A stretch of DNA of 50,058 bases. It comes from a bacterium (lineage in GTDB: Bacteria; Chloroflexota; Dormibacteria; Aeolococcales; Aeolococcaceae). A model generated the notes under the pieces. It ran no database searches. It saw only the letters and a list, made by a program, of their open reading frames with translations, and was not told where the DNA came from. The DNA is taken from the NCBI GenBank assembly GCA_021847925.1, contig JAJZNI010000129.1, positions 1-50,058 on the forward strand, written 5' to 3'. This document shows, piece after piece, positions 4,213-39,725 of this stretch. Position 1 is the first letter of the stretch, and every line of letters begins with the position of its first letter. The translations under genes were made by a program, and so were the position numbers.

Positions 4213-4272
4213 GGGGCCGGGGTTCCGAGCCCGGGGGGACCAACGACGCTCACCAGCCGGGACCATGGCCTC
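4213..4272. promoter_or_regulatory. Array of DosR/DevR-like boxes with 23-bp period upstream of the GltD-like/kor operon
   Basis: GGGGC-CGGG-GTTCC (4213, weak), GGGAC-CAAC-GACGC (4236), GGGAC-CATG-GCCTC (4259). A -10-like CAGACT lies at 4297. Confidence 0.55.
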
Positions 4273-4308
4273 TACTGGCCGGGCCGGGTGGGCATCCAGA
4301 CTCGAACG

Positions 4309-6153
4309 GTGCCACCCACGGACACGACGAACCCCGACTGGTACCACCGGGTGGTCGACTGCCAGTGGGCATGCCCCGCGCACACGGACGTCCCCCAGTA
4401 CATCCGCCTCATCGGCCAGGGACGCTACGCCGACGCGTACCTGCTGAACCGGGAGACCAACGTCTTCCCGGGAGTGCTCGGACGCACCTGCGACCGCCCC
4501 TGCGAGCCCGCCTGCCGGCGGAGCCGCGTGGACGGCACCGCGGTGGCCATCTGCCGGCTCAAGCGGGTGGCCGCCGATCTGCGCGGGGAGCTCGCCGGGC
4601 GCCTGCCCCGGGCTCCGGAGCGGCGCAACGGCAAGCGCGTCGCCTGCGTCGGCGCGGGGCCGGCGTCGCTCAGCGTCGCCAGCGACCTGCTCCCTCTCGG
4701 GTACGAGGTGGTCATCCACGAACGCCATCCCCTTCCCGGCGGGCTGATGCGCACCAGCATCCCGGCCTTCCGCCTCCCCGAGGCGGTGCTCGACGAGGAG
4801 ATCCGATTCATCCTCGACATGGGTGCCGAGGTCCGTTACGGCTCCCCGGTGGCGAGCCTGCGCAGGCTGCTCGCGGAGGGCTACGACGCCGTCTTCATCG
4901 GCAGCGGGGCGCCGCGGGGCAAGGACCTGGACCTCCCGGGCCGCGCTGAGGGCGGGCGCATCCACATCGGCTTGGACTGGCTGCAGTCGGTGGCCTTCGG
5001 GCACGTCACCGGCATCGGTGAGCGGGTCCTGGTGATCGGGGTCGGCAACACGGCAATGGACTGCTGCCGCACCGCGCGACGCCTGGGCGGGACCGACGTG
5101 AAGGTGGTGGCGCGGCGCCCCCGCGCCTTCTTCAAGGCCTCCGACTGGGAGCTCGAGGACGCCGAGGAGGAGGGCATCGACATCCTCACCGAGCTCGCCC
5201 CGCGGCGCTTCGTGGTGGAGGGCGGCCGCCTGCTCGGGGTGGAGTTCGACCGCCTCGCGTGGGACGAGGGCGCGCGCGCCTCGACCGTGATGGGGAGCGA
5301 GCTCCTCCCCTGCGACGACGTCATCCTGGCGGTGGGCCAGGAGGCGGCCTTCCCCTGGATCGAGCGCGACCTGGGCGTGGAGTTGGGCCGCTGGGACCTG
5401 CCTGTCGTCGATCGGACGACGCTGCAGTCCACCCTCCCCGGCGTCTTCTTCGGCGGGGATGCGGCGTTCGGGCCCCTCAACATCATCTGGGCGGTGGAGC
5501 ACGGGCACCAGGCGGCCATCTCCATCGACAACCACTGCCGGGGGGTCGGCGTCGACGAGCGCCCGGCGCCGCGGGTGGGGCTGCGGAGCATGGACATGGG
5601 ACTCGCCCAGTGGAGCTATCACAACGAGTACAACCCGTCCAAGCGGCAGCGCATGGAGCACGTCGCCATGGTGCGCCGCTTCGCCGCCCTCTCCGTCGAG
5701 GTGGAGCTGGGCTTCGCCCCGGAGCAGAGCGCCCGCGAGGTGGGCCGCTGTCTCAACTGCGACATCCAGACCGTGCTCGTGCCCGAGCTGTGCATCGAGT
5801 GCGATGCCTGCATCGATGTCTGCCCGGTGCGCTGCCTGACCATCACCGCCGGCGCCGACGAGCCCGAGCTGCGCGGCCGGCTCTCGGCGCCCACGCTGCA
5901 CCCCGACGAGCCCCTGTTCGTCTCCACGCCGCTGCCTCAGACCGGCCGTGTGATGGTGAAGGACGAGGACCTCTGCGTCCACTGCGGCCTCTGCGCCGAG
6001 CGCTGTCCCACCGCCGCCTGGCGGATGGAGCGTCTCGAGCTCAGCCTGCCGCGCGCGGGCGGGGTGTGGTCCCCCGACCCGGGCTCGGCCGGGGCCGGCA
6101 CCGACCCCGCCGCCCATGCGGCCGCGCCCCTTCCCGGAGTCGCGCAACGATGA
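4309..6153 (+). CDS. GltD/DsrL-like FAD/NAD(P)H-dependent oxidoreductase with N-terminal Fe-S clusters and a C-terminal ferredoxin-like domain
   Basis: CQWACP, GRTCDRPCEPACRR, VGAGPA, IGVGNTAMDC, RCLNC, CIECDACIDVCP, CVHCGLCAERCP. GTG 4309 is preferred (alternative GTG 4288) because a -10-like hexamer sits 6 nt upstream. Confidence 0.85.
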   Translation: MPPTDTTNPDWYHRVVDCQWACPAHTDVPQYIRLIGQGRYADAYLLNRETNVFPGVLGRTCDRPCEPACRRSRVDGTAVAICRLKRVAADLRGELAGRLPRAPERRNGKRVACVGAGPASLSVASDLLPLGYEVVIHERHPLPGGLMRTSIPAFRLPEAVLDEEIRFILDMGAEVRYGSPVASLRRLLAEGYDAVFIGSGAPRGKDLDLPGRAEGGRIHIGLDWLQSVAFGHVTGIGERVLVIGVGNTAMDCCRTARRLGGTDVKVVARRPRAFFKASDWELEDAEEEGIDILTELAPRRFVVEGGRLLGVEFDRLAWDEGARASTVMGSELLPCDDVILAVGQEAAFPWIERDLGVELGRWDLPVVDRTTLQSTLPGVFFGGDAAFGPLNIIWAVEHGHQAAISIDNHCRGVGVDERPAPRVGLRSMDMGLAQWSYHNEYNPSKRQRMEHVAMVRRFAALSVEVELGFAPEQSAREVGRCLNCDIQTVLVPELCIECDACIDVCPVRCLTITAGADEPELRGRLSAPTLHPDEPLFVSTPLPQTGRVMVKDEDLCVHCGLCAERCPTAAWRMERLELSLPRAGGVWSPDPGSAGAGTDPAAHAAAPLPGVAQR

Positions 6154-7988
6154 CCGCGACACCCTGGGCCGAGGAGGCGGCCGCCACCCGCGCCCCGCAG
6201 GTCAACGAGCTGGCCCTGCGCATCGCCACCGTGAACGGCACCGGCTCATCGAGCGCCAACAACCTGCTGATGCGTGCCATCTTCCGGATGGGGATACCCG
6301 TGTCGGGCAAGAACATCTTCCCCTCCAACATCCAGGGGCTCCCCACCTGGTACGAGATCCGCGTGAGCGGCGCCGGTCACACCGCGCGAGCGCGCAACCC
6401 GGACCTGCTGGTCGCCATGAACACCCAGACCCGGGAGCGCGACGTCGCCGCGGTGCGTCCCGGCGGCTGCGTCCTGTGGGATTCAACCTCCCCGCTGGAG
6501 CGGGCCGGCGAACGCGGGGACGTCACCCTCCTGGGCATCCCCATCGCCCGCATGTGCGCGGAGGAGTTCCACAACCCCCGGGAGCGGATCCTGCTCCAGA
6601 ACGTGGTCTACGCGGGCGCCGTCACGGCGCTCCTGGGCATCGATCCCGCGGTCACCGCCACCCTGATCGACGAGCGCTACCGGCGACGCCCGAGGCTGGG
6701 CGAGGCCAACAGGCGCGCCTTCCGCATCGGCGAGGAGTACGCGCGGCAGCACTTCCCGTGCCCCCTGCCCTGCCACGTCGAGCCGATGCAGGCGACCGGC
6801 GGCTCGATCATCGTCGACGGCAACACCGCGACCGCCCTGGGCTGCATCTACGCGGGAGCGACCGTCGCCGCCTGGTACCCGATCACCCCGTCGACGTCGG
6901 TGATGGACGCCTTCACCGCGTTTGCGCGCCGCTCCCGGCGCGATCCCATGACCGGGCTCTCGACCTGCATGATCGTTCAGGCCGAGGACGAGCTCGCCTC
7001 CATCGGCACCGTGATCGGCGCCGGCTGGGCCGGCGCCCGTGCCTTCACCGCCACCTCCGGACCGGGCCTCTCGCTGATGCAGGCGCTGCTGGGCCTCGCC
7101 TACTACACCGAGATCCCGGCGGTCGTGTTCGACGTGCAGCGGGCCGGGCCCTCCACGGGGATGCCGACGCGCACCCAGCAGGCCGACCTCCTCGCTGCGG
7201 CCCACGCCTCCCACGGCGACACCGCGCACATCCTGCTGTTCCCCGGAGACCCCGCCGAGTGCTTCGACTTCGCGGTGCGCGCCTTCGATCTGGCCGAGCA
7301 CTTCCAGACGCCCGTCCTGGTGCTCTCGGACACCGACATCGGGATGAACGACTGGGTGGTCCCCCGGCTCCGCTGGGACGACACCTACGCCCCCGACCGG
7401 GGCCGCGTGCTCGGCGCGGCCGAGGTCGAGGCGGCGGGGGAGTACCACCGCTACGCCGATGCCGACGCCGACGGTGTCGCCGCGCGCACGCTGCCCGGGG
7501 TCAGCCCGGCGGCCGCGTACTACACCCGCGGCTCCGGGCACAACCGGCTGGCCGGCTACACGGAGGACCCCGACGAGTACCGGGAGGTGGTCGACCGGCT
7601 GGCCCGCAAGCATGCCGCGGCAGGGGGGTGGGTCCCCGAGCCGGTGATCGAGGCGCGGCCCGGGGCGTCGGTGGGTCTGGTCACCCTGGGCAGCGGCGGG
7701 CCCGCGGTGCGCGAGGCGGTGGAGATGCTCCGCGCCCAGGGCGTCGCCGCCGACTGCATGCGCCTGCGCGGCTATCCCTTCCCCGAGGCCGTCTTCCGCT
7801 TCCTGGAGGGCCATGCTTTCTGCTTCGTGGTGGAGCAGAATCGCGACGCCCAGCTCCGCACCCTGCTCCTCGAGAGCGGGGCCGGCTCGGAGCGGCTGGG
7901 CTCGGTGCTTCTCTACGGAGGCGAGCCGATCACCGCCGGCGAGGTGAGCGACGCGGTGCTCGTCCAGCTGCGCCGGCGCGAGGAGTAG
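6150..7988 (+). CDS. korA: 2-oxoacid:acceptor oxidoreductase alpha subunit (gamma-alpha fusion)
   Basis: NGTGSSSAN gamma domain, WYPITPST, QAEDE, TATSGPG, QRAGPSTGMPT. ATGA overlap with the upstream gene. Substrate specificity cannot be determined. Confidence 0.9.
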   Translation: MTATPWAEEAAATRAPQVNELALRIATVNGTGSSSANNLLMRAIFRMGIPVSGKNIFPSNIQGLPTWYEIRVSGAGHTARARNPDLLVAMNTQTRERDVAAVRPGGCVLWDSTSPLERAGERGDVTLLGIPIARMCAEEFHNPRERILLQNVVYAGAVTALLGIDPAVTATLIDERYRRRPRLGEANRRAFRIGEEYARQHFPCPLPCHVEPMQATGGSIIVDGNTATALGCIYAGATVAAWYPITPSTSVMDAFTAFARRSRRDPMTGLSTCMIVQAEDELASIGTVIGAGWAGARAFTATSGPGLSLMQALLGLAYYTEIPAVVFDVQRAGPSTGMPTRTQQADLLAAAHASHGDTAHILLFPGDPAECFDFAVRAFDLAEHFQTPVLVLSDTDIGMNDWVVPRLRWDDTYAPDRGRVLGAAEVEAAGEYHRYADADADGVAARTLPGVSPAAAYYTRGSGHNRLAGYTEDPDEYREVVDRLARKHAAAGGWVPEPVIEARPGASVGLVTLGSGGPAVREAVEMLRAQGVAADCMRLRGYPFPEAVFRFLEGHAFCFVVEQNRDAQLRTLLLESGAGSERLGSVLLYGGEPITAGEVSDAVLVQLRRREE

Positions 7989-7990
7989 CC

Positions 7991-9040
7991 GTGCCGTCCA
8001 TCGCCAAGCCGCCGATCCGCCATCCGGCCCTCCCCGTCAACGAGCTGGGGCTCGCCGAGCGCGACTACGAGGGCGCGATGTCCACGCTCTGCGCCGGCTG
8101 CGGTCACGACGCCGTGACCGCGGCGATCGTGCGCGCGCTCTGGGAGGTGGCGGTGCCGCCGCACATGGTCGTCAAGCTGAGCGGGATCGGCTGCTCCGCC
8201 AAGACCACCGCCTACTTCCTGCGCGGCGCGCACGGGTTCAACGGGGTGCACGGCCGGATGGCCCCGCTCGCGACCGGGGTGGGCGCGGCCAACTCCGATC
8301 TCCTGCTGATCGGCATCTCGGGGGACGGCGACAGCCTCTCCATCGGCATCGGACACCTGGTGCACCTGATCCGGCGCAACCTGCGGATGATCTACGTCAT
8401 CGAGAACAATGGGGTGTACGGGCTCACCAAGGGCCAGCTCTCCGCCTCCGCCGACGTCGGCTCCACGAGCAGCAAGGGCACCCCCGGGGTCATCCAGCCG
8501 GTCGATCCGATGCTGCTGGGACTGAGTCTCGGGGCGACCTTCCTGGCCCGCGGCTTCTCCGGAGACAAGGCGCAGCTCGTGCCCATCCTCAAGGCCGCGA
8601 CCGCCCACCGGGGCCTCGCCCTGATCGACGTGATCTCGCCGTGCGTCAGCTTCAACGACCACGAGGGGTCGACCAAGAGCTACCGCTTCACCCGGGAGCA
8701 CGACGTCCAGGTCACCACCACCGACTTCGTGGAGCCGCGGCCGGAGCTGCTCACCGCCATCGGCCCGGTGGGGATCACCGATCTCACCCTCCACGACGGC
8801 ACCCGGGTGCGGGCCCGCGCCCTCCCCGAGGGGTACGACCCCGGCGACCGCGACGCGGTGGGAGCCTACCTGCGCGAGGCTCACGATCGCGGCGAGGTGG
8901 CGACCGGCATCCTCTACGTCGACCCCTCCCGCCCCACGCTGCACGAGCTCCTCCGCGTGGTGCCCCGCCCGCTGGCCGGCCTGCCGTACGCGGACCTCTG
9001 CCCCGGCGCCGCCGAGCTGGAGCGCTTCGGGGAGAGCTGA
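7991..9040 (+). CDS. korB: 2-oxoacid:ferredoxin oxidoreductase beta subunit
   Basis: TLCAGCG, SGIGCS, HGR, ThDP motif GDGD...ENNGVYGLTKGQ, SPCV. GTG start 2 nt after the korA stop. Confidence 0.9.
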   Translation: MPSIAKPPIRHPALPVNELGLAERDYEGAMSTLCAGCGHDAVTAAIVRALWEVAVPPHMVVKLSGIGCSAKTTAYFLRGAHGFNGVHGRMAPLATGVGAANSDLLLIGISGDGDSLSIGIGHLVHLIRRNLRMIYVIENNGVYGLTKGQLSASADVGSTSSKGTPGVIQPVDPMLLGLSLGATFLARGFSGDKAQLVPILKAATAHRGLALIDVISPCVSFNDHEGSTKSYRFTREHDVQVTTTDFVEPRPELLTAIGPVGITDLTLHDGTRVRARALPEGYDPGDRDAVGAYLREAHDRGEVATGILYVDPSRPTLHELLRVVPRPLAGLPYADLCPGAAELERFGES

Positions 9041-9104
9041 GGGCCGGGCGCCGGGACGCCCCGCCCTGGCGCGCGGGGGCTCCGAAGCGTCACAGTCCGT
9101 GGGC

Positions 9105-10799
9105 ATGGCACCCACGGAGCCGGACCGACCCGTCACCGTCCACGGCGGCCGCCTGGTCGCCGACCGCCTGCGCGCGGGTGGGGTGGAGGTTGTCTTCACC
9201 CTTCCCGGCGGGCACATCGTCGAGCTCCTCCACGGCTGCGAGGAGGCGGGGCTGCGCGTCGTCGACGTGCGCCACGAGGGGTCGGCGACACTCGCCGCGC
9301 TCGGCTACGCCCTCGCCACCGGCCACCCCGGGGTGGCCGCGGTCACGGCGGGGCCAGGTTTCACCAACGCGCTGACCGGGCTGGCCGACGCCGCCCTGGG
9401 CAACGCCCCGCTGGTGCTGATCGGCGGCCGCACCGTCCTCAGGCGGCGCGGGCGCGGGGCCGTCCAGGATCTCGACCAGATGGCCATGGCGGCTCCGATC
9501 TCCAAGTGGGCGGCGGCGGCCCAGGACGCCGGCAGCGTGGAGCGCCTCACCGACGAGGCCCTGCACCGGGCCCGGAGCGGGCGCCCCGGCGCCGTCTACC
9601 TGGAGGTGCCGCACGACGTCTTCATGGCCCGCACGCCTGCGAGCGGCGGGGTGTGGGGCTTCCCGACCGCCGCCTCCCACCCCGCCGCCTCCCCCACCGA
9701 GCTGGAGCGCGCTCTGGAGGCCCTGCGCCGCGCCGAGCGCCCCGTCGCGCTGGCCGGAAGCGGTGCCTTCTGGTCGGGTGCGGGCGAGGAGATCGCCCGG
9801 CTCTGCGAGAGCCTCCAGATCCCCCTCGTCACCACCAGCGCCGCCCGCGGCCTGGTCCCCGACTCCCACGAGTGGTGCCTCGGCTCCTTTGTCCACGCCG
9901 GCATCGCGGTGGCCCAGGCGGATTGCGTCCTGGTGCTGGGCAGCGCCTTCAACGCCAACCTGGTCTACGGCGGCCCACCGCTCTTCAGCGAGGAGCACGT
10001 GCTCATCCAGGTGGACATCGCCGCCGAGGAGCTGGGGGGCAACCGCCGCCCCGACGTCGCCGTGCAGGGCGACGTGGGGAGGGTGGCCGCCGACCTGGCG
10101 GACGCGGGCTCCGGCGGGCGCGATCGCCGCGACTGGCTGCTCCAGGCGCGCGAGCTGACGGCGCTCTCGCGCCCCACGTGGGACGCGCAGGTGGACGAGC
10201 ACGCGGGGCCGCTGGTGCATCCGGGCGCGCTGGCCCGCGAGGTCTGCGCCTGGGCGCGGGACACCTGGAGCGGCGCGGCGACGCTCGTGACCGACGGGGG
10301 AGACTCCCTCACCTGGGCCCTGGCCTACGCGGAGGCGGAGCGCCCCGGGCACCTCCTCTCCACCACCACAGCCCTCGGGACCCTGGGCGTCGGGCTGCCC
10401 TTCGCACTCGGAGCGGCGGCGGCGCGCCCCTCCGAACCGGTGGTCCTGCTCACCGGCGACGGGGCCTTCGGCCTCAGCGCGATGGAGATGGACAGCGCCG
10501 CCCGCCAGGGGTTCCCGATCATCGTCGTCGTGGCCAACAACGGCGGCTGGGGGGACGTGCGCCACCACCAGCGGGCCGCCGTCGGCCGGGAGACCGCCAG
10601 CCACCTGGCGGTCTCCCGCTACGACCTGCTCGCGGAGGCGCTGGGGGGCCACGGGGAGCGCGTGGACACCGTGGCCGATCTCCGGCCGGCCCTGGACCGC
10701 GCCGCCGCGGCCGGGGTACCCGCGCTGGTCGACGTCCCCACCGACCCCGAGGTGCTCTCCGCCCTGCTCCGGGCGATGATGTCCATCGGGATCATGTAG
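9105..10799 (+). CDS. ThDP-dependent enzyme, acetolactate synthase / 2-hydroxyacyl-CoA lyase superfamily
   Basis: VFTLPGGH, RHE catalytic Glu, TAGPGFTN, GRPGAVYL, GTLGVGLPFALG, GDGAFG...NNGGWG. No ilvH/ilvC nearby. Confidence 0.85.
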   Translation: MAPTEPDRPVTVHGGRLVADRLRAGGVEVVFTLPGGHIVELLHGCEEAGLRVVDVRHEGSATLAALGYALATGHPGVAAVTAGPGFTNALTGLADAALGNAPLVLIGGRTVLRRRGRGAVQDLDQMAMAAPISKWAAAAQDAGSVERLTDEALHRARSGRPGAVYLEVPHDVFMARTPASGGVWGFPTAASHPAASPTELERALEALRRAERPVALAGSGAFWSGAGEEIARLCESLQIPLVTTSAARGLVPDSHEWCLGSFVHAGIAVAQADCVLVLGSAFNANLVYGGPPLFSEEHVLIQVDIAAEELGGNRRPDVAVQGDVGRVAADLADAGSGGRDRRDWLLQARELTALSRPTWDAQVDEHAGPLVHPGALAREVCAWARDTWSGAATLVTDGGDSLTWALAYAEAERPGHLLSTTTALGTLGVGLPFALGAAAARPSEPVVLLTGDGAFGLSAMEMDSAARQGFPIIVVVANNGGWGDVRHHQRAAVGRETASHLAVSRYDLLAEALGGHGERVDTVADLRPALDRAAAAGVPALVDVPTDPEVLSALLRAMMSIGIM

Positions 10800-10883
10800 C
10801 GGTCCCGGCGCGCTCAGCCTCCCCCGACCACGGAGAGGTGCGGAGAGGTCACGATCCCAGGCCGGGACGGCACCCGGGACCCG

Positions 10884-11072
10884 TCAGCGCCGGGGCATGG
10901 TCTGGAGCCGCCGCTCGAGCCGGGCGATGGCCTCGGCGTGACGCCGGGCCTCGGTCACGGTCTCGACCCAGGCGTCGGGTACCCGGCCCGCCCGGCGGCG
11001 CAGGAACCGCTCGAGGTTGTCCTTCTCCTCGCGCTCGGCGCGGCGGGTGGCGGCGTCACGCGGCCAGTGCAT
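10884..11072 (-). CDS. Small hypothetical protein (62 aa, charged, probably helical)
   Basis: ATG at 11072 with a GGAGGA RBS 8 nt upstream. Fills the gap between the ThDP gene and xfp and is divergent from xfp. Confidence 0.55.
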   Translation of the reverse strand: MHWPRDAATRRAEREEKDNLERFLRRRAGRVPDAWVETVTEARRHAEAIARLERRLQTMPRR

Positions 11073-11145
11073 AACCGGCCTCCTCCGGTCATGGTGCTCA
11101 GTGTCTGTCCCGGTCCAGTGAAGCGCGGCGTTCCGCGGCCGAGTA

Positions 11146-11182
11146 GGGTCGATGGCCAGGAAGGCCCGGGGCCGAAGGTCAT
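11146..11182. promoter_or_regulatory. Pair of DosR/DevR-like boxes, 23 bp apart, between the small ORF and xfp
   Basis: GGGTC-GATG-GCCAG (11146) and GGGCC-GAAG-GTCAT (11169). Confidence 0.55.
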
Positions 11183-11250
11183 CCGGGCTGGCACCGCCCC
11201 CGGGCGATGCACGAACATGGGGGGCGGGCACCCAGCCCTGGAGGAGCACG

Positions 11251-13629
11251 ATGACCCAGACGGAAGCAGCCGCGAACGGAGCCGGCCCCCTCTCCGACCA
11301 CGACCTCGCTCTCATCGACGCCTACTGGAGGGCGGCCAACTTCGTCTCGGTGGGCCAGATCTACCTGCTGGACAACCCCCTCCTGCGGGTGCGGCTGCGG
11401 CCCGAGCACATCAAACCTCGGCTGCTCGGACACTGGGGCACGACCCCCGGCCTCAACTTCATCTACGCGCACATCAACCGGGTGATCCGCAACTGGGACC
11501 TCGACGCGATCTACGTCATGGGACCGGGGCACGGCGGACCGGCGGCGGTGGCCAACGCCTATCTGGAGGGGACCTACACCGAGCTGTACCCGCACATCAC
11601 CCGTGACGAGGACGGGTTGCGCCAGCTCTTCCGCCAGTTCTCGTTCCCGGGAGGCATCCCCTCCCACGTCGCCCCCGAGACTCCCGGCTCCATCCACGAG
11701 GGGGGCGAGCTGGGGTACGCCCTCTCCCACGCCTACGGCGCGGCGTTCGACAACCCCGACCTGCTCGTCTGCTGCATCGTCGGTGACGGCGAGGCCGAGA
11801 CGGGCCCCCTGGCGACGGGATGGCATTCGAACAAGTTCCTGGACCCCGCCACCGACGGCGCGGTGCTGCCCATCCTGCACCTCAACGGCTACAAGATCGC
11901 CAACCCCAGCGTGCTCGCGCGCATCCCCGACGCGGAGCTGACCTCGCTGCTCGAGGGGTACGGCCACACGGTCCACTGGGTGTCGGGAGACGACCCCGCC
12001 ACCATGCACCAGCAGATGGCGGCCACCCTGGACACCGTGATCGACGAGATCACCGCCATCCAGAGGCGGGCCCGCGAGGATGGCGACCTGGCGCGCCCGG
12101 CGTGGCCGATGATCGTGCTGCGCAGCCCCAAGGGGTGGACCGGCCCCAAGATGGTCGACGGGCTTCCCAGCGAGGGCACGTGGCGCGCCCACCAGGTGCC
12201 GCTGGCCGAGGTCCGGACCAATCCGGAGCACCTCGCCCAGCTCGAGGCCTGGATGAGGAGCTACCGCCCCGAGGAGCTCTTCGACGGGCAGGGGACGCTG
12301 GCCGCCGAGCTGGCGGCGCTTCCGCCCAAGGCGTACAGGCGGATGAGCGCCAACCCCCACGCCAACGGGGGGCTGCTGCTCAGGGACCTGAGGCTCCCCG
12401 ACTTCCGCGGCTACATGCTGGAGGTGGCGCGCCCCGCCACCACCTTCTCCGAGGCCACCCGCGTCCTGGGCACCTGGCTGCGCGACGTGGTGCGCGCCAA
12501 CCCCGATTCGTTCCGGATCTTCGGTCCCGACGAGACCAGCTCCAACCGGCTGCAGGCGGTCCTCGAGGTCACCAACCGGCAGTGGGACGCCCAGACGCTC
12601 CCCGGCGACGACCACCTGGCCCCCCAGGGACAGGTGATGGAGATGCTCTCCGAGCACCAGTGCCAGGGCTGGCTGGAGGGCTACCTGCTCACCGGCCGGC
12701 ACGGCCTCTTCAACTGCTACGAGGCGTTCATCCACATCGTGGACTCGATGTTCAACCAGCACGCCAAGTGGCTCAAGGTCACGCGCGACATCCCCTGGCG
12801 CCGGCCCATCGCGTCGCTCAACTACCTGCTCTCCTCGCACGTCTGGCGGCAGGACCACAACGGCTTCTCGCACCAGGACCCCGGCTTCGTCGACCACGTG
12901 GTCAACAAGAAGGCCGAGATCATCCGCGTCTACCTGCCCCCGGACACCAACTGCCTGCTCTCCACGGCGGACCACTGCCTGCGCAGCCGCCACTACGTCA
13001 ACGTGATCGTGGCCGGCAAGCAGCCGTCCCTCAACTACCTGGGCCCGGAGGAGGCGATCCTGCACTGCACCCGCGGCATCGGCATCTGGGAGTGGGCGAG
13101 CAACGACCAGGGTGACCCCGACGTGGTGATGGGCTGCTGCGGGGACGTTCCCACCCTGGAGACGCTCGCCGCCGTCGACATCCTCCGCCGCGAGCTTCCG
13201 GAGCTCAAGGTCCGGGTGGTGAACGTGGTCGACCTCATGCGCCTGCAGCCCGACACCGAGCACCCCCACGGGCTCTCCGACCGCGAGTTCGACATCCTCT
13301 TCACGTCCGACCGGCCGGTGGTCTTCGCCTACCACGGGTACCCGTGGCTGATCCACCGGCTCACCTACCGGCGCAGCAACCATCCCAACTTCCACGTGCG
13401 CGGGTACAAGGAGGAGGGCACCACCACGACCCCCTTCGACATGGTGATGCTCAACGACCTGGATCGCTTCCACCTGGTGATGGACGTCGTCGACCGCGTG
13501 CCGGGACTGCAGTCCCACGCCGCCGCGCTGCGCCAGCACATGGCCGACGAGCGGGTGCGCTGCCGCGCCTACACCCGCGCCGAGGGCGAGGACCCACCCG
13601 ACATCCGCAACTGGACCTGGACGGGATAG
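11251..13629 (+). CDS. xfp: Xylulose-5-P/fructose-6-P phosphoketolase
   Basis: [82 protein letters not shown]. Confidence 0.97.
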
Positions 13630-13679
13630 CCGGTGGCCCTCCGGATGGCCGGGGCACGGGTGGGACGGCCGGTCGCGGC

Positions 13680-14786
13680 ATGAGGATCCTGGTCGTCAAC
13701 GCGGGGTCGAGCAGCCTCAAGCTCTCCCTGCTCGAGGGCGGGGGCCCCCCGCTCCTCACCGAGAGCGTCCCGGCCGGCGGCGGCGGCCTCGACGAGGGGG
13801 GGCTCCGCGACGCCATCGCGCGCAGCGGGCCGGTCGACGCCGTCGGCCACCGGATCGTCCACGGCGGCACCGAGTTCACCGAGCCCGTGCTGGTCGACTC
13901 CCGCGTGCGCCGGCGCCTGGAGGCGCTCACCGACCTGGCGCCCCTGCACCAGCCGAAGTCGCTGCGCGGCCTCGACCTGGTCTGCCGCCTGCTCCCCGAG
14001 GCGCCCGCCGTGGCGTGCTTCGACACCGCCTTCCACGCCCGCATCCCGGACAGCGCCGTCACCTACGCGCTCCCCTCGGAATGGCGGCGGCGCTGGACGC
14101 TGCGAAGGTTCGGCTTCCACGGGCTGTCGCACGCGTACGCGTCGCGGCGAGCCGCCGAGATGCTGGGCCGGCCCGCGACCGGGCTGCGCGTGGTCACCTG
14201 CCACCTCGGCGCCGGAGCCTCGCTCGCGGCGGTGCGGGACGGCGTCTCGGTGGACACGACCATGGGCTTCACGCCCCTGGAGGGGCTGGTGATGGCGACC
14301 CGCTCCGGCAGCATCGACCCGGGCCTCCTGCTCTGGCTCGAGGAGCACGTGGGGATGCCGCCGTCGGAGCTGGCGACCACCCTGGAGCACCGCTCGGGGC
14401 TGCTCGGGCTCTGCGGCAGCGCTGACATGCGGGCCATCCTCGAACGCGAGGCGGCGGGCGATGGGGACGCCGCCCTGGCCGTGGGCGTGTACCTCCATCG
14501 CCTCCGCGCCGGCATCGCCCAGATGGCCGCGGCCCTGGGCGGGCTGGACTGCCTGGTCTTCACCGGCGGGGTGGGCGAGCACGCTCCCGACGTGCGGGCT
14601 CGCGCCGCGGAGGGCCTCGGTTTCCTCGGCGTCCTGGTGGACGCGGCGGCCAATCGGGAGGCTCACCCCGACTGCGAGATCAGCCCCGCGGGCTCGGGCG
14701 TGCGCAGCCTGGTGATCGAGGCGCGGGAGGACCTGGAGATCGCGAGCGGGGTCCGGGAGGCGCTGGGCCCTCGCCCGAGCGCCTGA
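13680..14786 (+). CDS. ackA: Acetate/propionate kinase
   Basis: ILVVNAGSSSLK, GHRIVHGG, APLH, FDTAFH, GFHGLSH, HLGAGAS, TMGFTPLEG, VFTGGVGE. Confidence 0.96.
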   Translation: MRILVVNAGSSSLKLSLLEGGGPPLLTESVPAGGGGLDEGGLRDAIARSGPVDAVGHRIVHGGTEFTEPVLVDSRVRRRLEALTDLAPLHQPKSLRGLDLVCRLLPEAPAVACFDTAFHARIPDSAVTYALPSEWRRRWTLRRFGFHGLSHAYASRRAAEMLGRPATGLRVVTCHLGAGASLAAVRDGVSVDTTMGFTPLEGLVMATRSGSIDPGLLLWLEEHVGMPPSELATTLEHRSGLLGLCGSADMRAILEREAAGDGDAALAVGVYLHRLRAGIAQMAAALGGLDCLVFTGGVGEHAPDVRARAAEGLGFLGVLVDAAANREAHPDCEISPAGSGVRSLVIEAREDLEIASGVREALGPRPSA

Positions 14787-14825: not shown

Positions 14826-14857
14826 GTGGCCCGCCCGCGGCGCCGCGGGCGGGCCAC
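14826..14857. terminator. Perfect 32-bp palindrome between convergent ackA and gltA; probable bidirectional terminator hairpin
   Basis: GTGGCCCGCCCGCGGCGCCGCGGGCGGGCCAC equals its own reverse complement. No U-tract. Confidence 0.6.
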
Positions 14858-16287: not shown

Positions 16288-16347
16288 GGTAAACCGGTCC
16301 CCCTTCGCGGGGACCTGCGGACGGCGGCCGCGGGGGCCGTGGGTCCC
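16288..16347. promoter_or_regulatory. Three DosR/DevR-like boxes with 23-bp period between divergent gltA and Nudix-ppk2
   Basis: GGTAA-ACCG-GTCCC (16288), GGACC-TGCG-GACGG (16311), GGGCC-GTGG-GTCCC (16334). Confidence 0.55.
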
Positions 16348-16882: not shown

Positions 16883-17781
16883 GCGACGAGCACCTGGGAC
16901 ATCTCCGCCATCTGGCCCGCTCCCTGCGCGTCGAGCCGGGGACGCGGGTGCGCCTGCCCCACGGCTTCGACCCCGGGCACACGGGCGGGTATGTGCGGGA
17001 GGCGGATGCGGCTGGGGCGCTCGCCGCCGGGGTTCGCCTGCTCAGCAGCTACCAGGCCCGCCTCGCCGCCCAGGACAGCTACGGCCTGCTGGTGGTCCTG
17101 CAGGCGCTCGACGCCGCGGGCAAGGACGGGGCGGTCCAGCACGTGATGAGCGGCGTCAACCCCCAGGGGGTGTGGGTCCGCAGCTTCAAGGTGCCGTCCG
17201 CCGACGAGCTGAACCACGACTTCCTCTGGCGCTACACGCGGGACCTGCCCCCGCGCGGGGTGATCGGCATCTACAACCGCTCGCACTACGAGGAGGTGCT
17301 GGTGGTGCGCGTGCACCCCGAGAACCTGGAGCGCCAGCACCTGCCCGAGAGCGCCCGGGGGAAGGACGTCTGGGAGCGGCGGCTGCGCGGCATCAACGAC
17401 TGGGAGCGCCACCTGGTCGAGAATGGGATCCAGGTGGTCAAGATCTTCCTCAACCTCTCTCCGGAGGAGCAGCGCCGCCGGCTCCTGGCGAGGATCGACG
17501 ACCCCGACAAGAACTGGAAGTTCTCCGCTGCCGACCTCGCCGAGCGCGGCCACTGGCACGACTACCAGCGCGCCTACTCCGACGCGCTCACCCACACCAG
17601 CACCGAGGCGGCACCGTGGCACGTGGTGCCCGCCGACCACAAGTGGTTTGCCCGCGTGGCGGTGGCGGCGGTGATCATCGACGCGCTCGCCGCCATCGAC
17701 CCGCGCTTCCCCGAGCTCGGCCCCGACGAGCACGCGGCGCTGGAGACAGCCCGGGCTCAGCTCATCGCCATGAAGGAGTAG
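16879..17781 (+). CDS. ppk2: Polyphosphate kinase 2 family protein (class III-like)
   Basis: QALDAAGKDG Walker A, SFKVPS, HDFLWR, YNRSHYEEVL, KNWKFS..D..ER, APWHVVPADHKW. Confidence 0.93.
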   Translation: MSDEHLGHLRHLARSLRVEPGTRVRLPHGFDPGHTGGYVREADAAGALAAGVRLLSSYQARLAAQDSYGLLVVLQALDAAGKDGAVQHVMSGVNPQGVWVRSFKVPSADELNHDFLWRYTRDLPPRGVIGIYNRSHYEEVLVVRVHPENLERQHLPESARGKDVWERRLRGINDWERHLVENGIQVVKIFLNLSPEEQRRRLLARIDDPDKNWKFSAADLAERGHWHDYQRAYSDALTHTSTEAAPWHVVPADHKWFARVAVAAVIIDALAAIDPRFPELGPDEHAALETARAQLIAMKE

Positions 17782-18603: not shown

Positions 18604-18749
18604 GGGCCATCGGTCACGTCCGGGGGGGCCGGTGCACCGGCAGGGCGGCTCCGGCCGGAGGGGGCTGAGATCCCTCCGTGAAGGTGACGAGGGCCCCATC
18701 GGGGCCGGCCCCGGGGCTCCGGTCCCTGCCGGCATGGGCCCTCCGGCCC
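18604..18749. promoter_or_regulatory. Five DosR/DevR-like boxes (two 23-bp pairs plus one single) between divergent CBS-BON and hyp genes
   Basis: GGGCC-ATCG-GTCAC (18604); GGGGC-TGAG-ATCCC (18661) with GTGAC-GAGG-GCCCC (18684); GGGGC-TCCG-GTCCC (18713) with GGGCC-CTCC-GGCCC (18736). -10-like TAGCAT at 18774. Confidence 0.62.
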
Positions 18750-18786
18750 TGCCCCAAGGGGCGGTGGCGGCCGTAGCATCGGGGTG

Positions 18787-24329: not shown

Positions 24330-24338
24330 TATGGGCCC

Positions 24339-27113: not shown

Positions 27114-27392
27114 ATGGCGGCACCCGGGTACAGCGCCGACAGGGCCTCGCTCCAGGCCCGGCTGGCGAGGATCGAGGGGCAGGTGCGCGGTCTCCAGCGG
27201 ATGCTGGACGAGGACCGCTACTGCATCGACGTCCTCACCCAGGTGACGGCGGTGAAGGCGGCGCTCGACAAGGTGGCGCTGGCCCTCCTCGACGACCACG
27301 TCAGCCACTGCGTCGTCGACTCCGTCCGGGAGGGCACCCACGCGGAGAAGATCCGGGAGCTCACCGACGCGATCGGACGCTACCTGGGCTGA
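27114..27392 (+). CDS. csoR: Copper-sensing repressor CsoR
   Basis: RLARIEGQVRGL..M...RYCIDVLTQ...HVSHC; intact C-H-C ligand set. Lies in the copA-copZ operon. Confidence 0.9.
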   Translation: MAAPGYSADRASLQARLARIEGQVRGLQRMLDEDRYCIDVLTQVTAVKAALDKVALALLDDHVSHCVVDSVREGTHAEKIRELTDAIGRYLG

Positions 27393-27422: not shown

Positions 27423-27692
27423 TCATGCCAGCGAGAGGAAGAGGCGCTCGAGCCGCTCCTCATCGGTGGCGGCCGCCCCACCGTCCCGCGACGCGTCGCG
27501 GCACTGCTGGAGACCGGTGGCGATGAGCCGGAACCCGGCCCGGTCGACCGCGTGCGACACCGCGGAGAGCTGGGTGACCACGTCCGCGCAGTCGCGGCCC
27601 TCCTCCAGCATGCGGATGACGCCCCGGAGCTGCCCCTCGGCGCGGCGGAGCCGCCGGACCACCTCGTGGGTCGCGGGCTCGTCAAGCTGCAC
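27423..27692 (-). CDS. Second CsoR/RcnR-family regulator lacking the Cu-binding His (CstR/Rv1766-like)
   Basis: RLRRAEGQLRGVIRMLEEGRDCADVVTQL...IATGLQQC. Both Cys are kept; His is replaced by Gly. Confidence 0.85.
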   Translation of the reverse strand: MQLDEPATHEVVRRLRRAEGQLRGVIRMLEEGRDCADVVTQLSAVSHAVDRAGFRLIATGLQQCRDASRDGGAAATDEERLERLFLSLA

Positions 27693-28106: not shown

Positions 28107-28122
28107 GGTGCCTCCAGCATGG

Positions 28123-28170
28123 ATACCCGCCAGGGTATTATTCCTGCGGTCATCATACCTCCGGGGGTAT
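28123..28170. promoter_or_regulatory. Tandem CsoR-family operators (16 bp each) upstream of the trx-regulator operon
   Basis: ATACCC-GCCA-GGGTAT (28123-28138) and ATACCT-CCGG-GGGTAT (28155-28170), 32 bp apart. Confidence 0.8.
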
Positions 28171-28258
28171 TGAGCGAAACGGGCCCGCGGGGCCGGGGCC
28201 GGGGCCCGGGAGGGGCCCCGGCGGGCGATAGACTGGGGCGGGGCCGAGGAGGTGAGGC

Positions 28259-30898: not shown

Positions 30899-31106
30899 GG
30901 CTCAGCGACGCAAACCGGGGCTGATCATGGCGGTGGGACGGTGATGCCGTGACCTCCGGCGCGAGCGTCCCGTCGCGCGGCGGGCGCGGGGGAGGATGGC
31001 GGTGAGCCGGCGCAGGTCCGGCCTCCTCGGAAGGCTCTCACACCGCCGGCGAACCCGGCAAGGTGGTCCCGGCGCCGAGGGCGGGGATGCGAACGGCCCG
31101 CCCGGC

Positions 31107-31480: not shown

Positions 31481-31540
31481 GTGACCAAGGGCCCCACCGA
31501 CATGTGCCCTTCACCCGCGGCGACCGGTGCGACCGGACCC
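31481..31540. promoter_or_regulatory. Three DosR/DevR-like boxes with 23-bp period upstream of the zinc-ribbon ORF and hypF
   Basis: GTGAC-CAAG-GGCCC (31481), GTGCC-CTTC-ACCCG (31504), GTGCG-ACCG-GACCC (31527). Confidence 0.55.
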
Positions 31541-34172: not shown

Positions 34173-34174
34173 GG

Positions 34175-35035
34175 CTACAGCTCCCTCCGGGCGAGCAGCG
34201 GCGCCACCCTCGACCAGGGCAGGACCGGTCCCTCCGAGCAGATGAAGAGACCACCGAGCTGGCAGTGCCCGCAGCGCCGGATGCCGCACTGCATGGTTCG
34301 CTCCAGGGAGGCCAGAACCCGCTGCGGCGCAACCCCCTGGGCCATGACCCCGGCGGCGGCGAAGCGCATCATGACCTCGGGGCCGCAGACCATGGCCACC
34401 GTCACCTCGGGATCGATGGTGAGGCGCTCGATCAACGTGGTCACCACCCCGACGTCCCCCTTCCAGGCCGCGGTGGCGTAGTCGACGGTGGTCCTGACCT
34501 CCATGCGCGCGCTGGCCTGCCAGCTCGCGATCTCACCGCGGAAGACCATCTCATCGGGAGATCGGGCGCCCACCAGCAGGGTCACGCGACGAAAGCGACG
34601 GCGACGGCGCAGCACCTCGTGCACCACCGGGCGCAGCGGGGCCAGTCCGATGCCCCCGGCGACCAGCAGCAGGTCTCCACCCGCCGCGGCCTCGACCCCC
34701 CAGGCCGTACCGTACGGCCCGCGCACCCCGACGACGTCCCCCACATCGAGAGCGCAGAGGGCCTTGGTGACGGCCCCCACCGCACGGATGGTGTGCAGCA
34801 GCCGGCTCTGCGAAGCCTCGACGCCGCTCACCGAGATGGGCACCTCGCCGACGCGGGGCGCGTAGAGCATGCAGAACTGCCCGGCTGCCGGGGTCGGGAT
34901 GGACTCGGTCACGGGCACGATGCCGATGGTCACCGTGTCCTCGGTCTCGCGGGTGCGGGACGTCACCCGGTACGCGACCGGGGCCATCTCGTCGCGCACG
35001 CTCGGCCGTTCAGCGGGTTCCGCTGCCAGTGCCAT
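34175..35035 (-). CDS. hydG: Group 3b hydrogenase gamma subunit (FAD/NAD(P)-binding, 2Fe-2S)
   Basis: [48 protein letters not shown]...C.EGPV. Confidence 0.93.
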
Positions 35036-35480
35036 AGACGTCCAGGAGGCGCAGACGGACGGATTGGAGACGGCCCAGCATCACCCGCGCGAAACCCTGG
35101 GTCAGCAGGTAGCCGAGGCGGGGATCGGCCTCGCATTTGTCGCGCAGGCACCGGGCGTCGAAGGCGACGCCCGAGACCGGCTCGAGGGCGTCGGCGTCGA
35201 ACTGCCAGCGGTAGGGTTCGAAGAGCCAGGACCAGCCCAGCACGTCGCCGCCCCCCAGGGTGTCCACCACCACCGTGCCGCGCTCGGGGACGTAGAAACC
35301 CAGCGCCGCCCTCCCGCTGCGCAGGAGGTAGAAGGCGTCGGCCGGCTCGCCGGCCGTCAGGATGCGCTGGCCCACCGCGAAGTGGACGTTGCGGCCGCAC
35401 CCTGCGATCAGGTCCAGGCTGTCCCGGTCCAGCCCGCGGAAGAACCTCTGCTCGGCGATGAGCTCGGCGATCGTCTTCAT
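35010..35480 (-). CDS. Stand-alone cyclic-nucleotide-binding domain protein (no HTH)
   Basis: 156 aa: '[22 protein letters not shown]...[14 protein letters not shown]...FDADA'. Overlaps both the beta and gamma genes. Confidence 0.88.
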
Positions 35481-36700: not shown

Positions 36701-36741
36701 CTCCGGCACTCAGGGTGACGGTTCGTCCCCCGCCGCTGCCA

Positions 36742-36778
36742 GAGGCGGTGGTCAGGGCATGCCCGGGACCAAAGGGCC
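36742..36778. promoter_or_regulatory. Pair of DosR/DevR-like boxes, 23 bp apart, upstream of the hydrogenase operon
   Basis: GAGGC-GGTG-GTCAG (36742) and GGGAC-CAAA-GGGCC (36765). An out-of-phase GTGAC-GGTTC-GTCCC lies at 36715. Confidence 0.5.
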
Positions 36779-37943: not shown

Positions 37944-38181
37944 CGGGATCGGCTTCCTCGTGTGCGGGGGGCCGGCGCTGCCCGGGCCCGGGGGCGGGGA
38001 CCCTCGCCGTGTGGGTGGTCGGGCGCGGCGCCTCGGGGACCAGGGTACGCGGCACGCCCGAGAGCTGGCTGCGGCGGCCCCGCCCGATGGGGGGAGGCGA
38101 CATCCTGGCCAAGAGCGCCGGTCGGCGGTTGGCCACGGTTGCCGATGCGCGCAGCGGCCGCAGCGGGGAAGATGCGAGGAG

Positions 38182-39672
38182 GTGCAGAGCAGAGCAGCGC
38201 AGGCTGCCGAGACGGCCCCCCGTCGCAGCGGCACGGCGTGGCTGTCCGGCGTCCGGATCATCCAGGGCGGCATGGGCGTCGCCATCTCGGGATGGCGACT
38301 GGCCCGGACGGTCGCCTCGCACGCGGCCTGCATGGGCGTCGTGTCGGGGACGTGCATCGACAGCGTGGTGGCGCGCCGGCTCCAGGACGGTGACCCCGGC
38401 GCTCACGTGCGCCAGGCGATGGAGGCCTTCCCGGACCAGGAGGTGGCGACCCGCGTGCTGGACCGCTACTTCGTCCCCGGAGGCCGGGCGCCGGGCACGC
38501 CGTACCGCCGGGTGGGCATGCACACCCACGCCGAGCGCCCCCACCTTCGCGACCTGACCGTCCTCGCCGCGTTCGTCGAGGTCACCCTCGCGCGCCAGGG
38601 CCACACGGGCCCGATCGGGATGAACCTCCTCACCAAGGTCCGCCCGCCAACCCTGCCCACCCTCTATGGGGCGATGCTCGCAGGCGTCGACTGCGTGCTG
38701 ATGGGCGCGGGCATCCCCAGGGAGATCCCCGGCGCGCTCGACGCGTTCGCGGATGGCCGGGCCGCCACCCTGCGCCTCCATGACGGCCCCTCGCAGGGCG
38801 AGGACGAGCCGCTCCTGCGCCTCGACCCGGGGGCGTTGACGTACGGCGCTCGCCGGCTGGCGCGCCCGGCGTTCCTGGCCATCGTCTCGGCCGCCTCCCT
38901 CGCCGCCATGCTGATCCGCCGCTCCACCGGCAGGGTGGACGGCTTCGTGGTCGAGGGACCCACGGCGGGAGGCCACAACGCCCCTCCCCGCGGGCGGCTG
39001 ACCCTGGACGAGACCGGCCAGCCCGTGTACGGCGAGCGCGACCGGGCCGACCCCGAGCGGATGCGCGAGCTCGGCCTCCCGTTCTGGCTGGCCGGGGGGA
39101 CGGGATCGCCCGAGGCCCTCACCAAGGCACGCGAGGCCGGCGCGACCGGGGTTCAGGTGGGCACGCTCTTCGCCTACTCACGCGAGTCCGGGATGGAGCC
39201 GGCGCTGCGCCAGCGCGTCCTCGACGCGGCGCGGCGGGGAGGCGCCGGGGTCCGGACCGACCTGCGCTCCTCCTCCACCGGGTTCCCCTTCAAGGTGGTG
39301 CAGATGGAGCGCACCGTGGCCCGCGCCGACGTCTACGCCGCCCGCCCCCGCGTCTGCGACAACGGGTACCTGCGCGAGCCCGTGGCCCTCACCCAGGGCC
39401 ACGTGACCTGGCGCTGCGCCGCCGAGCCGGTGGCCGCCTTCGTCGCCAAGGGCGGCGACCCCGACGAGGCACGGGAGCGACGCTGCCTCTGCAACGGCCT
39501 GCTCGCGACCGCCGGGTTCGCCCAGGTGCAGAAGGACGGGACGGTGGAGCCGCCCATCGTGACGAGCGGGGACGACCTCGTCCGGCTCCCGAGCCTCCTC
39601 CCCGCCGGCCGCGACGACTACGGCGCGTCCGACGTCATCCGCTACCTCCAGGGCGAGGCGGCCACGCTCTGA
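38182..39672 (+). CDS. Nitronate monooxygenase / FabK-like FMN oxidoreductase with a Cys-bearing C-terminal extension
   Basis: IIQGGMGVAIS, MGAGIP, VVEGPTAGGHN, LAGG, GVQVGTLF, S.TGFP; then VCD, RC, CLCN. Start codon uncertain. Confidence 0.82.
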   Translation: MQSRAAQAAETAPRRSGTAWLSGVRIIQGGMGVAISGWRLARTVASHAACMGVVSGTCIDSVVARRLQDGDPGAHVRQAMEAFPDQEVATRVLDRYFVPGGRAPGTPYRRVGMHTHAERPHLRDLTVLAAFVEVTLARQGHTGPIGMNLLTKVRPPTLPTLYGAMLAGVDCVLMGAGIPREIPGALDAFADGRAATLRLHDGPSQGEDEPLLRLDPGALTYGARRLARPAFLAIVSAASLAAMLIRRSTGRVDGFVVEGPTAGGHNAPPRGRLTLDETGQPVYGERDRADPERMRELGLPFWLAGGTGSPEALTKAREAGATGVQVGTLFAYSRESGMEPALRQRVLDAARRGGAGVRTDLRSSSTGFPFKVVQMERTVARADVYAARPRVCDNGYLREPVALTQGHVTWRCAAEPVAAFVAKGGDPDEARERRCLCNGLLATAGFAQVQKDGTVEPPIVTSGDDLVRLPSLLPAGRDDYGASDVIRYLQGEAATL

Positions 39673-39725
39673 GGGTCCCGCCCCGGGCGGGACGAACGGC
39701 CCAGCTCTCCCATGACCCTCTCCCC
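39666..39725. promoter_or_regulatory. Three DosR/DevR-like boxes with 23-bp period upstream of the regulator/heme operon
   Basis: GCTCT-GAGG-GTCCC (39666), GGGAC-GAAC-GGCCC (39689), ATGAC-CCTC-TCCCC (39712). -10-like GATGCT at 39749. Confidence 0.58.

Follow-up and report, generated by a model that had tools for sequence, protein, structure and literature searches.

Probable DevR/DosR-type boxes in a Dormibacterota genome

The 50,058-nt contig JAJZNI010000129.1 (our C13, hereafter the window) of a Candidatus Dormibacterota bacterium carries, in several of its intergenic regions, tandem palindromic boxes that are very probably the operators of a DevR/DosR-type two-component response regulator. 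We base this interpretation on the enrichment of the boxes in intergenic DNA, their 23-bp phasing, their conservation, and the presence of a DevR orthologue and a haem-GAF kinase in the same genomic island. To our knowledge, no genetically tractable member of Candidatus Dormibacterota has been brought into culture, and gene regulation in this group is almost wholly undescribed. Our literature search, with supplements and about 1.7 million PMC articles outside its scope, turned up no paper that connects DosR or DevR with Dormibacterota. The set of boxes would represent a known type of regulon in a new host group.

The assembly comprises 2.44 Mb in 188 contigs (73% G+C, 87% complete), of which the window is one whole contig with a G+C content of 74%. 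Genes were mapped with a codon log-odds caller, which was trained on long open reading frames (ORFs) of the genome with high G+C at third codon positions (GC3) and which sets start codons heuristically; calling by GC3 only missed genes and was dropped in its favor. The map of the window holds 44 genes and 3343 intergenic bases. Naming with Pfam and NCBIfam profiles upheld the gene labels of an earlier, sequence-only reading of the window. The nearest relatives of the regulator gene described below come from metagenome-assembled genomes labelled Candidatus Dormibacterota, Dormibacteria or Changshengia, with a few other labels, and we therefore assign the organism to Candidatus Dormibacterota, not to an actinobacterium or mycobacterial relative.

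Enrichment and 23-bp spacing of the boxes

The sequence-only reading had listed 21 boxes in seven intergenic regions, here called arrays A to G (Table 1), and all of them were found in the sequence at the positions given. Scored against the consensus GGGACNNNNGTCCC (GGGAC-N4-GTCCC, 10 specified positions), two of these boxes match at 5 positions, five at 6, one at 7, ten at 8 and three at 9. In the window as a whole, 72 sites match at 8/10 or better, 22 of which fall in the 3343 intergenic bases, corresponding to 6.6 sites per kb, whereas coding DNA has 1.07. When the 21 intergenic regions (3222 bases) were shuffled 2000 times with dinucleotide counts preserved, a mean of 7.9 such sites was obtained (standard deviation 2.8, maximum 20). 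The expectation that the motif be commoner between genes than in coding or shuffled DNA was thus borne out, the density being about sixfold that of coding DNA.

Five pairs of sites of at least 8/10 lie exactly 23 bp apart, while the shuffles yielded a mean of 0.018 and a maximum of 2, so that none of the 2000 reached five; neither did any shuffle give five pairs at any spacing from 1 to 80. The excess at 23 bp is therefore hardly attributable to chance. The claim that every step within an array measures 23 bp is partly a product of the register chosen; array C, by our reading of the sequence, is better read at 16310 than at 16311, with steps of 22 and 24 bp. In a profile that set no threshold for the partner, the mean partner score was 5.14 at 23 bp to either side of a strong site and about 3.2 at other offsets, with smaller bumps at 45-46 and 52. 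Genome-wide, the naive consensus gave nine intergenic pairs at 23 bp (five of them in the window) and four at 24 bp over a background of about 0.8 per distance, and the spacings of 46-48 bp totalled nine pairs, whereas coding DNA was flat. Because the shuffles, the score profile and the genome-wide intergenic peak agree while coding DNA shows no peak, the box signal is real and confined to intergenic DNA.

A weight matrix was obtained by expectation maximization (EM) seeded with the consensus and run on 31 promoter stretches, chosen from the present genome and related ones, a selection that introduces bias. Spacing was not used in the training, and the spacing test with the naive consensus is free of this circularity. 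The resulting motif, cnGGG[A/C]C[C/G]nn[G/C]G[T/G]CCCng, is nearly invariant at the two positions flanking its centre, 7 (C) and 12 (G), with a frequency of 0.97. Its palindromic core GGGnC-N4-GnCCC agrees with the wording 'G5 and C7 are essential' of PMC3177182, and the matrix also agrees with the OsdR consensus AGGGCCGATCGGCCCT as given for Streptomyces coelicolor in PMC5069765. By the matrix, 12 of the 21 boxes score at least 7.7 bits (top 0.07% of genome positions), four score 3.5-5.8 bits, and five are not box-like. Scanning the genome at 8 bits or more gave four intergenic pairs at 23 bp, four at 24 bp and zero to two at other distances over 10 to 100; coding DNA contains 6.7 times more matrix sites than intergenic DNA, without a spacing peak.

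Own EM runs without a seed, on the intergenic DNA of the window and on that of the whole genome, drifted to A+T-rich or low-complexity patterns, and their products (CATCATCAT runs, a CsoR-like palindrome and A+T-rich islands) were not adopted as the regulon motif. The only perfect 10/10 match of the window, at 13503-13516 inside xfp, is probably a chance occurrence, since its synonymous sites are not kept in three congeners. Genome-wide, six intergenic pairs of at least 8/10 are spaced at 67 bp against a background of about 0.8 (contigs C11, C30, C41, C63, C106 and C186), the case on C30 falling within an array of four to five boxes (4108, 4153, 4175, 4198).

A DevR-like regulator and its putative sensor kinase

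A profile search identified five GerE-domain genes in the genome, one at 5426-6094 of contig C116 (GerE match of 65 bits) and the others on contigs C47, C69, C54 and C4. The best PDB match of the C116 protein is DevR of Mycobacterium tuberculosis (3c3w; E 4e-59, 203 bits, residues 7-218, about 49% identity by alignment count), followed by VraR (143 bits) and NarL (133 bits). Asp54 as well as Lys179, Lys182 and Asn183 of the KTVKN stretch, counted along the 3c3w chain, are aligned and identical in the two proteins. Lys182 is important for DevR according to the title of one paper, and Lys179 and Asn183 are further DNA contacts. Asp54 is given as the phosphorylation site of DevR in PMC3029386.

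C116 ends inside cydB and the window starts inside cydB, and collinearity with the congeneric genome G002 indicates that C116 adjoins the window across a gap of some 50 bp, which places the regulator gene about 5.5 kb before the window. The sequence-only reading had postulated a NarL-family, DosR/DevR-like regulator encoded outside the window, and the gene on this adjoining contig answers to that description. It is divergent from a gene for a GNAT/ADP-forming acetyl-CoA synthetase-like protein, which is followed by cydAB. A pair of boxes 23 bp apart (C116:5331/5354) lies 72-95 nt before its start, and of the 20 close loci compared, with regulators of 86-90% identity, 14 have a pair in the same place. 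Judged by this pair, the regulator is predicted to control its own gene. A DevR-like gene was found in 156 of 201 genomes, a tally that takes in the unpublished G057, G066 and G074.

A kinase of 381 amino acids, with a GAF domain followed by HisKA_3 and HATPase domains, is encoded at 15202-16347 of contig C157. Its GAF domain matches DosT (2vzw) with 192 bits and DevS with 172-175 bits. The protein is likely a DosT/DevS-like haem-GAF sensor of the C116 regulator, a pairing that we assume. In the congener G001, where the island lies on one contig, the regulator gene is 7.5 kb before kor and the kinase gene about 12 kb beyond the hydrogenase, all within about 47 kb. Two Pyridox_ox_2 genes flank the kinase gene, and a three-box array (C157:17228-17288) lies before one of them. 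Other targets predicted from single sites are cydA, a small ferredoxin, the two Pyridox_ox_2 genes beside the kinase, a pyruvate phosphate dikinase (PPDK)-like gene on C105, enolase, glyceraldehyde-3-phosphate dehydrogenase and H+-pyrophosphatase; many of them may be false positives, as sites with such scores are enriched just 1.7- to 7.6-fold.

Conservation of the individual arrays

The arrays were compared with three genomes of the same genus (G001-G003), which carry the island in the same order; counts out of four refer to these and the present genome. At kor, the proximal box and a downstream CCAGACT element are kept in 4/4. The partner box 23 bp upstream is found in 3/4 (the present genome, G003 and G001), while G002 has a duplicated motif with candidates at 32 and 23 bp. 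The xfp pair occurs at 22-24 bp in the present genome, G001 and G002, that is, in all three loci given to EM, but it was not seen in G003, G010 and G011, whose loci were left out of EM. In the same promoter, a GATGCNCGACCATG-like element at 11203-11220, about 45 nt before the xfp start, is kept in the present genome, G001, G002, G003 and G010; it is out of phase with array B and could be a promoter or leader element.

A GTGACCGAyGGCCC-like sequence corresponds to the single CBS-BON box (18604) in 4/4 genomes, and the pair 18713/18736 before the hypC operon is conserved in G002 together with the downstream TAGCAT. At the hydrogenase operon, the equivalent of the distal box matches the palindrome without a flaw (10/10) in G001, G002 and G003, and a CTGrCCAACGGCTC-like degenerate box follows the distal box at 23-24 bp in 5/5 genomes (the present one, G001, G002, G003 and G010), from which we conclude that the weak box at 36742 is real. 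Likewise, the primary box of the heme operon is found 61 nt before the start in 4/4 genomes and is followed at exactly 23 bp by an xTGACCCTnTnCCCT-like sequence, again in 4/4. As both position and sequence are kept, box 39712 is real despite its low score. Position 39666, listed as a third box of array G, was rejected, for it overlaps the stop codon of the upstream gene and scores -2.1 bits.

Five of the seven arrays thus stand as real arrays, whereas C and E hold one credible box each (16334 and 31481). The neighbors claimed in array C, 16288 and 16311, score -5.8 and -3.5 bits, and those in array E, 31504 and 31527, score 3.5 and -3.2 bits. The proposal that one regulator co-ordinates all operons listed finds its support in the conserved boxes of kor, xfp, CBS-BON, hypC, the hydrogenase and the heme operon. 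A pair that was missing from the earlier list, 30935/30958 before hypF, is doubtful as a regulon site.

Promoter geometry and a model for the putative regulon

At four of nine promoters examined, a -10-like hexamer lies at a uniform distance from the proximal box, the centres being 34 nt apart at kor, hypC and the hydrogenase operon and 33 nt apart at CBS-BON (Table 1). The other five promoters have no hexamer at 33-34 nt. For these four, the distance implies that the proximal box is located near -43 from the predicted transcript start. Because the hexamers end 2-6 nt before the predicted starts of the GltD-like gene, hypC and the hydrogenase beta gene (4297-4311, 18774-18786 and 36707-36717), the geometry further suggests leaderless mRNAs at these three promoters, a reading that depends on the heuristic start calls.

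The hydrogenase subunits find their best NCBIfam families in ShyA/HydA, HydB, ShyC/HydG-like and ShyD/HydD, all far under the equivalog cut-offs, and the Pfam domains and gene order are consistent with a group 3b [NiFe] hydrogenase plus maturation protease. We predict a group-3b-like, NAD(P)-linked [NiFe] enzyme. The operon also encodes, between the beta and gamma genes (35010-35480, minus strand), a protein of 156 amino acids with a cyclic-nucleotide-binding domain.

We propose that the DosT/DevS-like kinase would sense the loss of O2 (or NO/CO) through haem and phosphorylate the regulator, a dimer of which would bind the better, primary palindrome and co-operatively recruit a second dimer to the degenerate, secondary box 23 bp away. 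The proximal box, centred some 43 nt ahead of where transcription is predicted to start, would then activate RNA polymerase as at class II promoters, and several promoters would give rise to leaderless mRNAs. Activation by low oxygen is inferred from homology. The output would be a low-oxygen redox balancing, with 2-oxoacid:ferredoxin oxidoreductase, phosphoketolase and acetate kinase, the group-3b-like hydrogenase and its Hyp maturases, the CBS-BON protein and the heme synthesis genes, and, on the neighboring contig, cytochrome bd, the ADP-forming acetyl-CoA synthetase-like protein and the regulator itself.

The model predicts that these soil and peat Dormibacterota turn to ferredoxin-linked fermentation and hydrogen metabolism at low oxygen by way of the mycobacterial dormancy switch. 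The regulator, a likely sensor, the DNA motif, the promoter architecture and about ten target operons were all derived from sequence alone. More tentatively, and with the odds rather against it, one may speculate that the DosR/DosT switch is not an actinobacterial speciality but governs, as master control, a whole 'survive without oxygen' island in Dormibacterota, made up of ferredoxin-linked oxidoreductases, a fermentative hydrogenase, cytochrome bd and phosphoketolase, with leaderless class II promoters and a strict 23-bp pitch of 2.2 turns that would reflect another dimer-dimer geometry than the 21-bp mycobacterial one. Dormibacterota, known as aerobic trace-gas oxidizers, would in that case also make H2 once oxygen runs out.

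Points against the interpretation and alternative explanations

Several observations weigh against reading the boxes as DevR-type operators. The best NCBIfam matches of the regulator are MadR (170 bits) and NarL (163 bits), both under the cut-offs, in a collection that holds no DevR model, and the kinase lacks the second GAF domain of DevS and DosT. A look-up of RNA sequencing runs for window positions 3800-13700 listed none. The matrix is partly circular, since it was trained on promoters picked for having boxes, and the compared genomes are kin, so that the conservation counts are not independent. Genome-wide, permissive thresholds enrich intergenic DNA modestly (1.4-fold at 8/10 or better; 1.0-1.1 at 6-8 bits), and therefore many lone predicted sites must be noise. 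In the three congeneric islands the naive consensus finds just one or two pairs each at 22-24 bp, counts that shuffles match in 1, 25 and 19 of 500 trials.

Individual sites add to these points. The gltA/NUDIX-ppk2 region, counted into the regulon by the sequence-only reading, does have one good box (16334), but the gltA promoter is without orthologous context in G001 and G002 and has a different context in G003. No counterpart of the pair 18661/18684 was found in G002, which alone among the congeners has hypC1 in this place, and G002, G010 and G011 do not keep the hypF pair; array E shows no conservation, and no orthologue of its small ORF was found in the congeners. Finally, the pitch of 23 bp here, and of 22-24 bp in the relatives, differs from the 21 bp described for tgs1-Rv3131.

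Of the alternatives, we find it improbable that the boxes, although real, are operators of another factor and that the DevR-like protein controls something else. Such a factor could be one that escaped recognition or one of the four other GerE-domain regulators, two of which lie beside HisKA_3 kinases, and the regulator was assigned to its sites here by homology alone. Nevertheless, the motif is the DevR/OsdR motif, the C116 protein, the one of the five whose recognition helix was compared, keeps the DNA-contacting KTVKN stretch, and its gene has a conserved pair in its own promoter and shares the island with the targets in the congeners.

It is quite improbable, too, that the DevR-like regulator binds the boxes but with another signal or sign, the kinase reporting NO, CO or redox state and some boxes serving for repression. 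The single GAF domain of the kinase would suit such a scheme, as would PDB titles that name DevS a redox sensor and DosT a hypoxia sensor, and the boxes 31481 and 18661/18684 lie far from promoters without obvious activating geometry. On the other hand, the box-to-hexamer distance of 33-34 nt fits activation, and the target set of cytochrome bd, hydrogenase, ferredoxin-linked oxidoreductases and fermentative ATP-forming enzymes suits a low-oxygen programme; according to PMC2799521, hypoxia raises both Hyd3 and cytochrome bd in Mycobacterium smegmatis.

The view that the pattern stems from hairpins, terminators or the G+C richness of intergenic DNA, with a 23-bp ruler fitted to loose matches, is very improbable and largely refuted by the shuffles and the conservation. 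In its favor, 5% of window positions match at 6/10 or better and offer a weak 'box' at most registers, five of the 21 boxes fail the matrix, and the GTCCC/GGGAC inverted repeats at 16296-16315 and 39675-39693 (array G) can fold. As candidate terminator hairpins, however, these repeats fold no better than shuffles (z -0.26 and -0.33). In none of the shuffles did the number of sites or of 23-bp pairs reach that observed, coding DNA, which has the same composition, lacks the peak, and the relatives keep boxes and pitch although the flanking sequence has diverged. We accordingly retain the DevR-type operator interpretation.

Features of the window

Table 1. Positions of boxes, -10-like hexamers and genes in the window. 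Scores are matches to the 10 specified consensus positions and matrix bits.
Feature	Position	Strand	Score or remark
Array A, distal third box, weak	4213..4226	+	8/10, 5.7 bits; exactly 23 bp to next; not clearly conserved in congeners
Array A, middle box	4236..4249	+	8/10, 8.5 bits; 73 nt before GTG 4309
Array A, promoter-proximal strong box, kor operon	4259..4272	+	13.2 bits, top 0.001% of genome positions
Array B, distal box upstream of xfp-ackA	11146..11159	+	6/10, 9.6 bits; similar box in G001, G002
Array B, proximal box before xfp	11169..11182	+	7/10, 10.2 bits
Array C, sole credible box, divergent region gltA (-)/NUDIX-ppk2 (+)	16334..16347	.	9/10, 9.6 bits
CBS-BON, single strong box	18604..18617	-	11.6 bits
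Array D, upstream pair 18661/18684, CBS-BON/hypC divergent region	18661..18697	+	both 8/10; 5.8 and 9.4 bits; 23 bp
Array D, proximal pair 18713/18736, hypC operon	18713..18749	+	9/10, 8/10; 8.2, 11.1 bits; 23 bp
Extra pair 30935/30958 before hypF (doubtful)	30935..30971	-	both 8/10, 5.4 and 5.8 bits; 23 bp
Array E, single strong box between hycI (-) and small ORF (-)	31481..31494	.	13.0 bits
Array F, promoter-proximal degenerate box, hydrogenase operon	36742..36755	-	6/10, 7.7 bits
Array F, distal primary box, hydrogenase operon	36765..36778	-	8/10, 9.5 bits
Array G, primary box before heme operon	39689..39702	+	9/10, 11.5 bits
Array G, degenerate secondary box	39712..39725	+	0.2 bits
Strict 23-bp pairs	4213/4236, 4236/4259, 18661/18684, 18713/18736, 30935/30958		both partners at least 8/10
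Not box-like by matrix	16288, 16311, 31527, 39666, 39712		
-10-like CAGACT, kor	4297..4302	+	ends 6 nt before GTG 4309; kept in 4/4 genus genomes
-10-like TAGCAT, hypC	18774..18779	+	4 nt before GTG 18784; conserved in G002
-10-like CACCCT, hydrogenase	36712-36717	-	34 nt from box 36742
-10-like CAGCGT, CBS-BON	18575-18580	-	33 nt from box 18604
cydB tail, then cydDC	window start		Pfam/NCBIfam
kor operon: GltD-like iron-sulfur flavoprotein, korA, korB, thiamine pyrophosphate (TPP) enzyme	start GTG at 4309	+	Pfam/NCBIfam
xfp, ackA	xfp start 11251	+	Pfam/NCBIfam
gltA, divergent from NUDIX-ppk2		- / +	Pfam/NCBIfam
CBS-BON gene	17762-18520	-	divergent from hypC-hypC-hypD-hypE
hypC-hypC-hypD-hypE operon	start GTG at 18784	+	Pfam/NCBIfam
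Copper ATPase and CsoR genes	copper ATPase at 24339		Pfam/NCBIfam
hypA and hypF	hypF start 30898	- (hypF)	Pfam/NCBIfam
Hydrogenase operon: beta, cyclic-nucleotide (cNMP)-binding protein, gamma, delta, alpha, HycI	36709 down to 31604	-	
Heme operon: SRPBCC / DtxR-family / HemY-like / radical-SAM / ferrochelatase	downstream of array G	+	
Second pyruvate:ferredoxin oxidoreductase (PFOR)	in window		Pfam/NCBIfam

Some further elements surfaced in the window. Palindromes of the form aaaaccCCCcggGGGgtTat with a G/C core, which came up in EM, are located at 24300-24335 and 28115-28175, one just before the copper ATPase (24339) and others between a thioredoxin gene (minus strand) and hypA, beside two genes of the CsoR family (plus strand, 27114-27392; minus strand, 27423-27692). 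All look like candidate CsoR operators. EM also picked up CATCATCAT/GATGATGAT runs in DNA called intergenic near 11088, 18561, 28141, 30921 and 31373 (approximate positions), which may be His-rich termini of proteins, Hyp or other, with starts that were called too short. The gap between the convergent ackA and gltA genes (14826-14857) contains a G+C hairpin with a 14-bp stem (z -2.4 against shuffles), likely a bidirectional terminator, and the consensus matches at 14804 and 14819 belong to this terminator region, not to the regulon.

Comparison with known systems

Hyd3 of M. smegmatis is reported, in a paper of 2014, to depend on DosR. The sequence-only reading had taken this control as established; PMC2799521 bears it out only as far as hypoxic induction beside a DosR-type gene cluster is concerned. 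At 0.6% O2, the induction of Hyd3, a group 3b enzyme adjoining the DosR-type cluster, reaches 67-fold, and that of cytochrome bd exceeds 50-fold (PMC2799521). The operon of the window resembles Hyd3 in the order beta, gamma, delta, alpha, maturation protease and in subunits that best match sulfhydrogenase families, but differs in the inserted cNMP-binding gene and in NCBIfam matches under the equivalog cut-offs.

The OsdR consensus of S. coelicolor is said by its authors to conform to the DevR site, and OsdR targets cluster round the regulator gene and include pyruvate phosphate dikinase and protoporphyrinogen oxidase (PMC5069765). Similarly, boxes are found here at the PPDK-like gene on C105 and at the HemY-like operon. 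Unlike the system of the window, OsdR/OsdK is tied to development, and the main text of PMC5069765 does not use the word 'tandem'; the passages of it considered here mention no hydrogenase.

The closest parallel is provided by DevR/DevS/DosT of M. tuberculosis. As PMC3177182 describes it, every promoter of the DevR regulon carries two to four boxes in tandem, of which one is strong and the rest are degenerate, and DevR on a conserved box co-operatively recruits DevR to poorly conserved neighbors. The proximal box is centred at -42.5; at tgs1, the box centres at -42.5 and -63.5 correspond to a pitch of 21 bp with a required helical phase, and inserts of +5 or +15 bp abolished binding to the secondary site (PMC3177182). 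The Dormibacterota system differs in its phylum, in a kinase with one GAF domain, in promoters that look leaderless, and in metabolic targets (kor, xfp-ackA, hydrogenase, heme) instead of universal-stress and alpha-crystallin genes. The Usp family is a hallmark of the mycobacterial regulon; the present genome has one Usp gene, at a contig edge with its promoter missing. What the two systems would share are a NarL-family regulator that agrees in its phospho-acceptor and DNA-contact residues, a haem-GAF sensor kinase, the box core, tandem strong and degenerate boxes, and autoregulation (PMC3177182; PMC3029386). The position near -43 predicted here for the proximal box at four of nine promoters would match the -42.5 of M. 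tuberculosis. In 30 actinobacterial devR-like loci, the few pairs of at least 8/10 comprised three at 23 bp, three at 33 bp and one at 21 bp, and next to the mycobacterial promoters the window would offer a second, distant data set on the spacing of DevR-type dimers along DNA.

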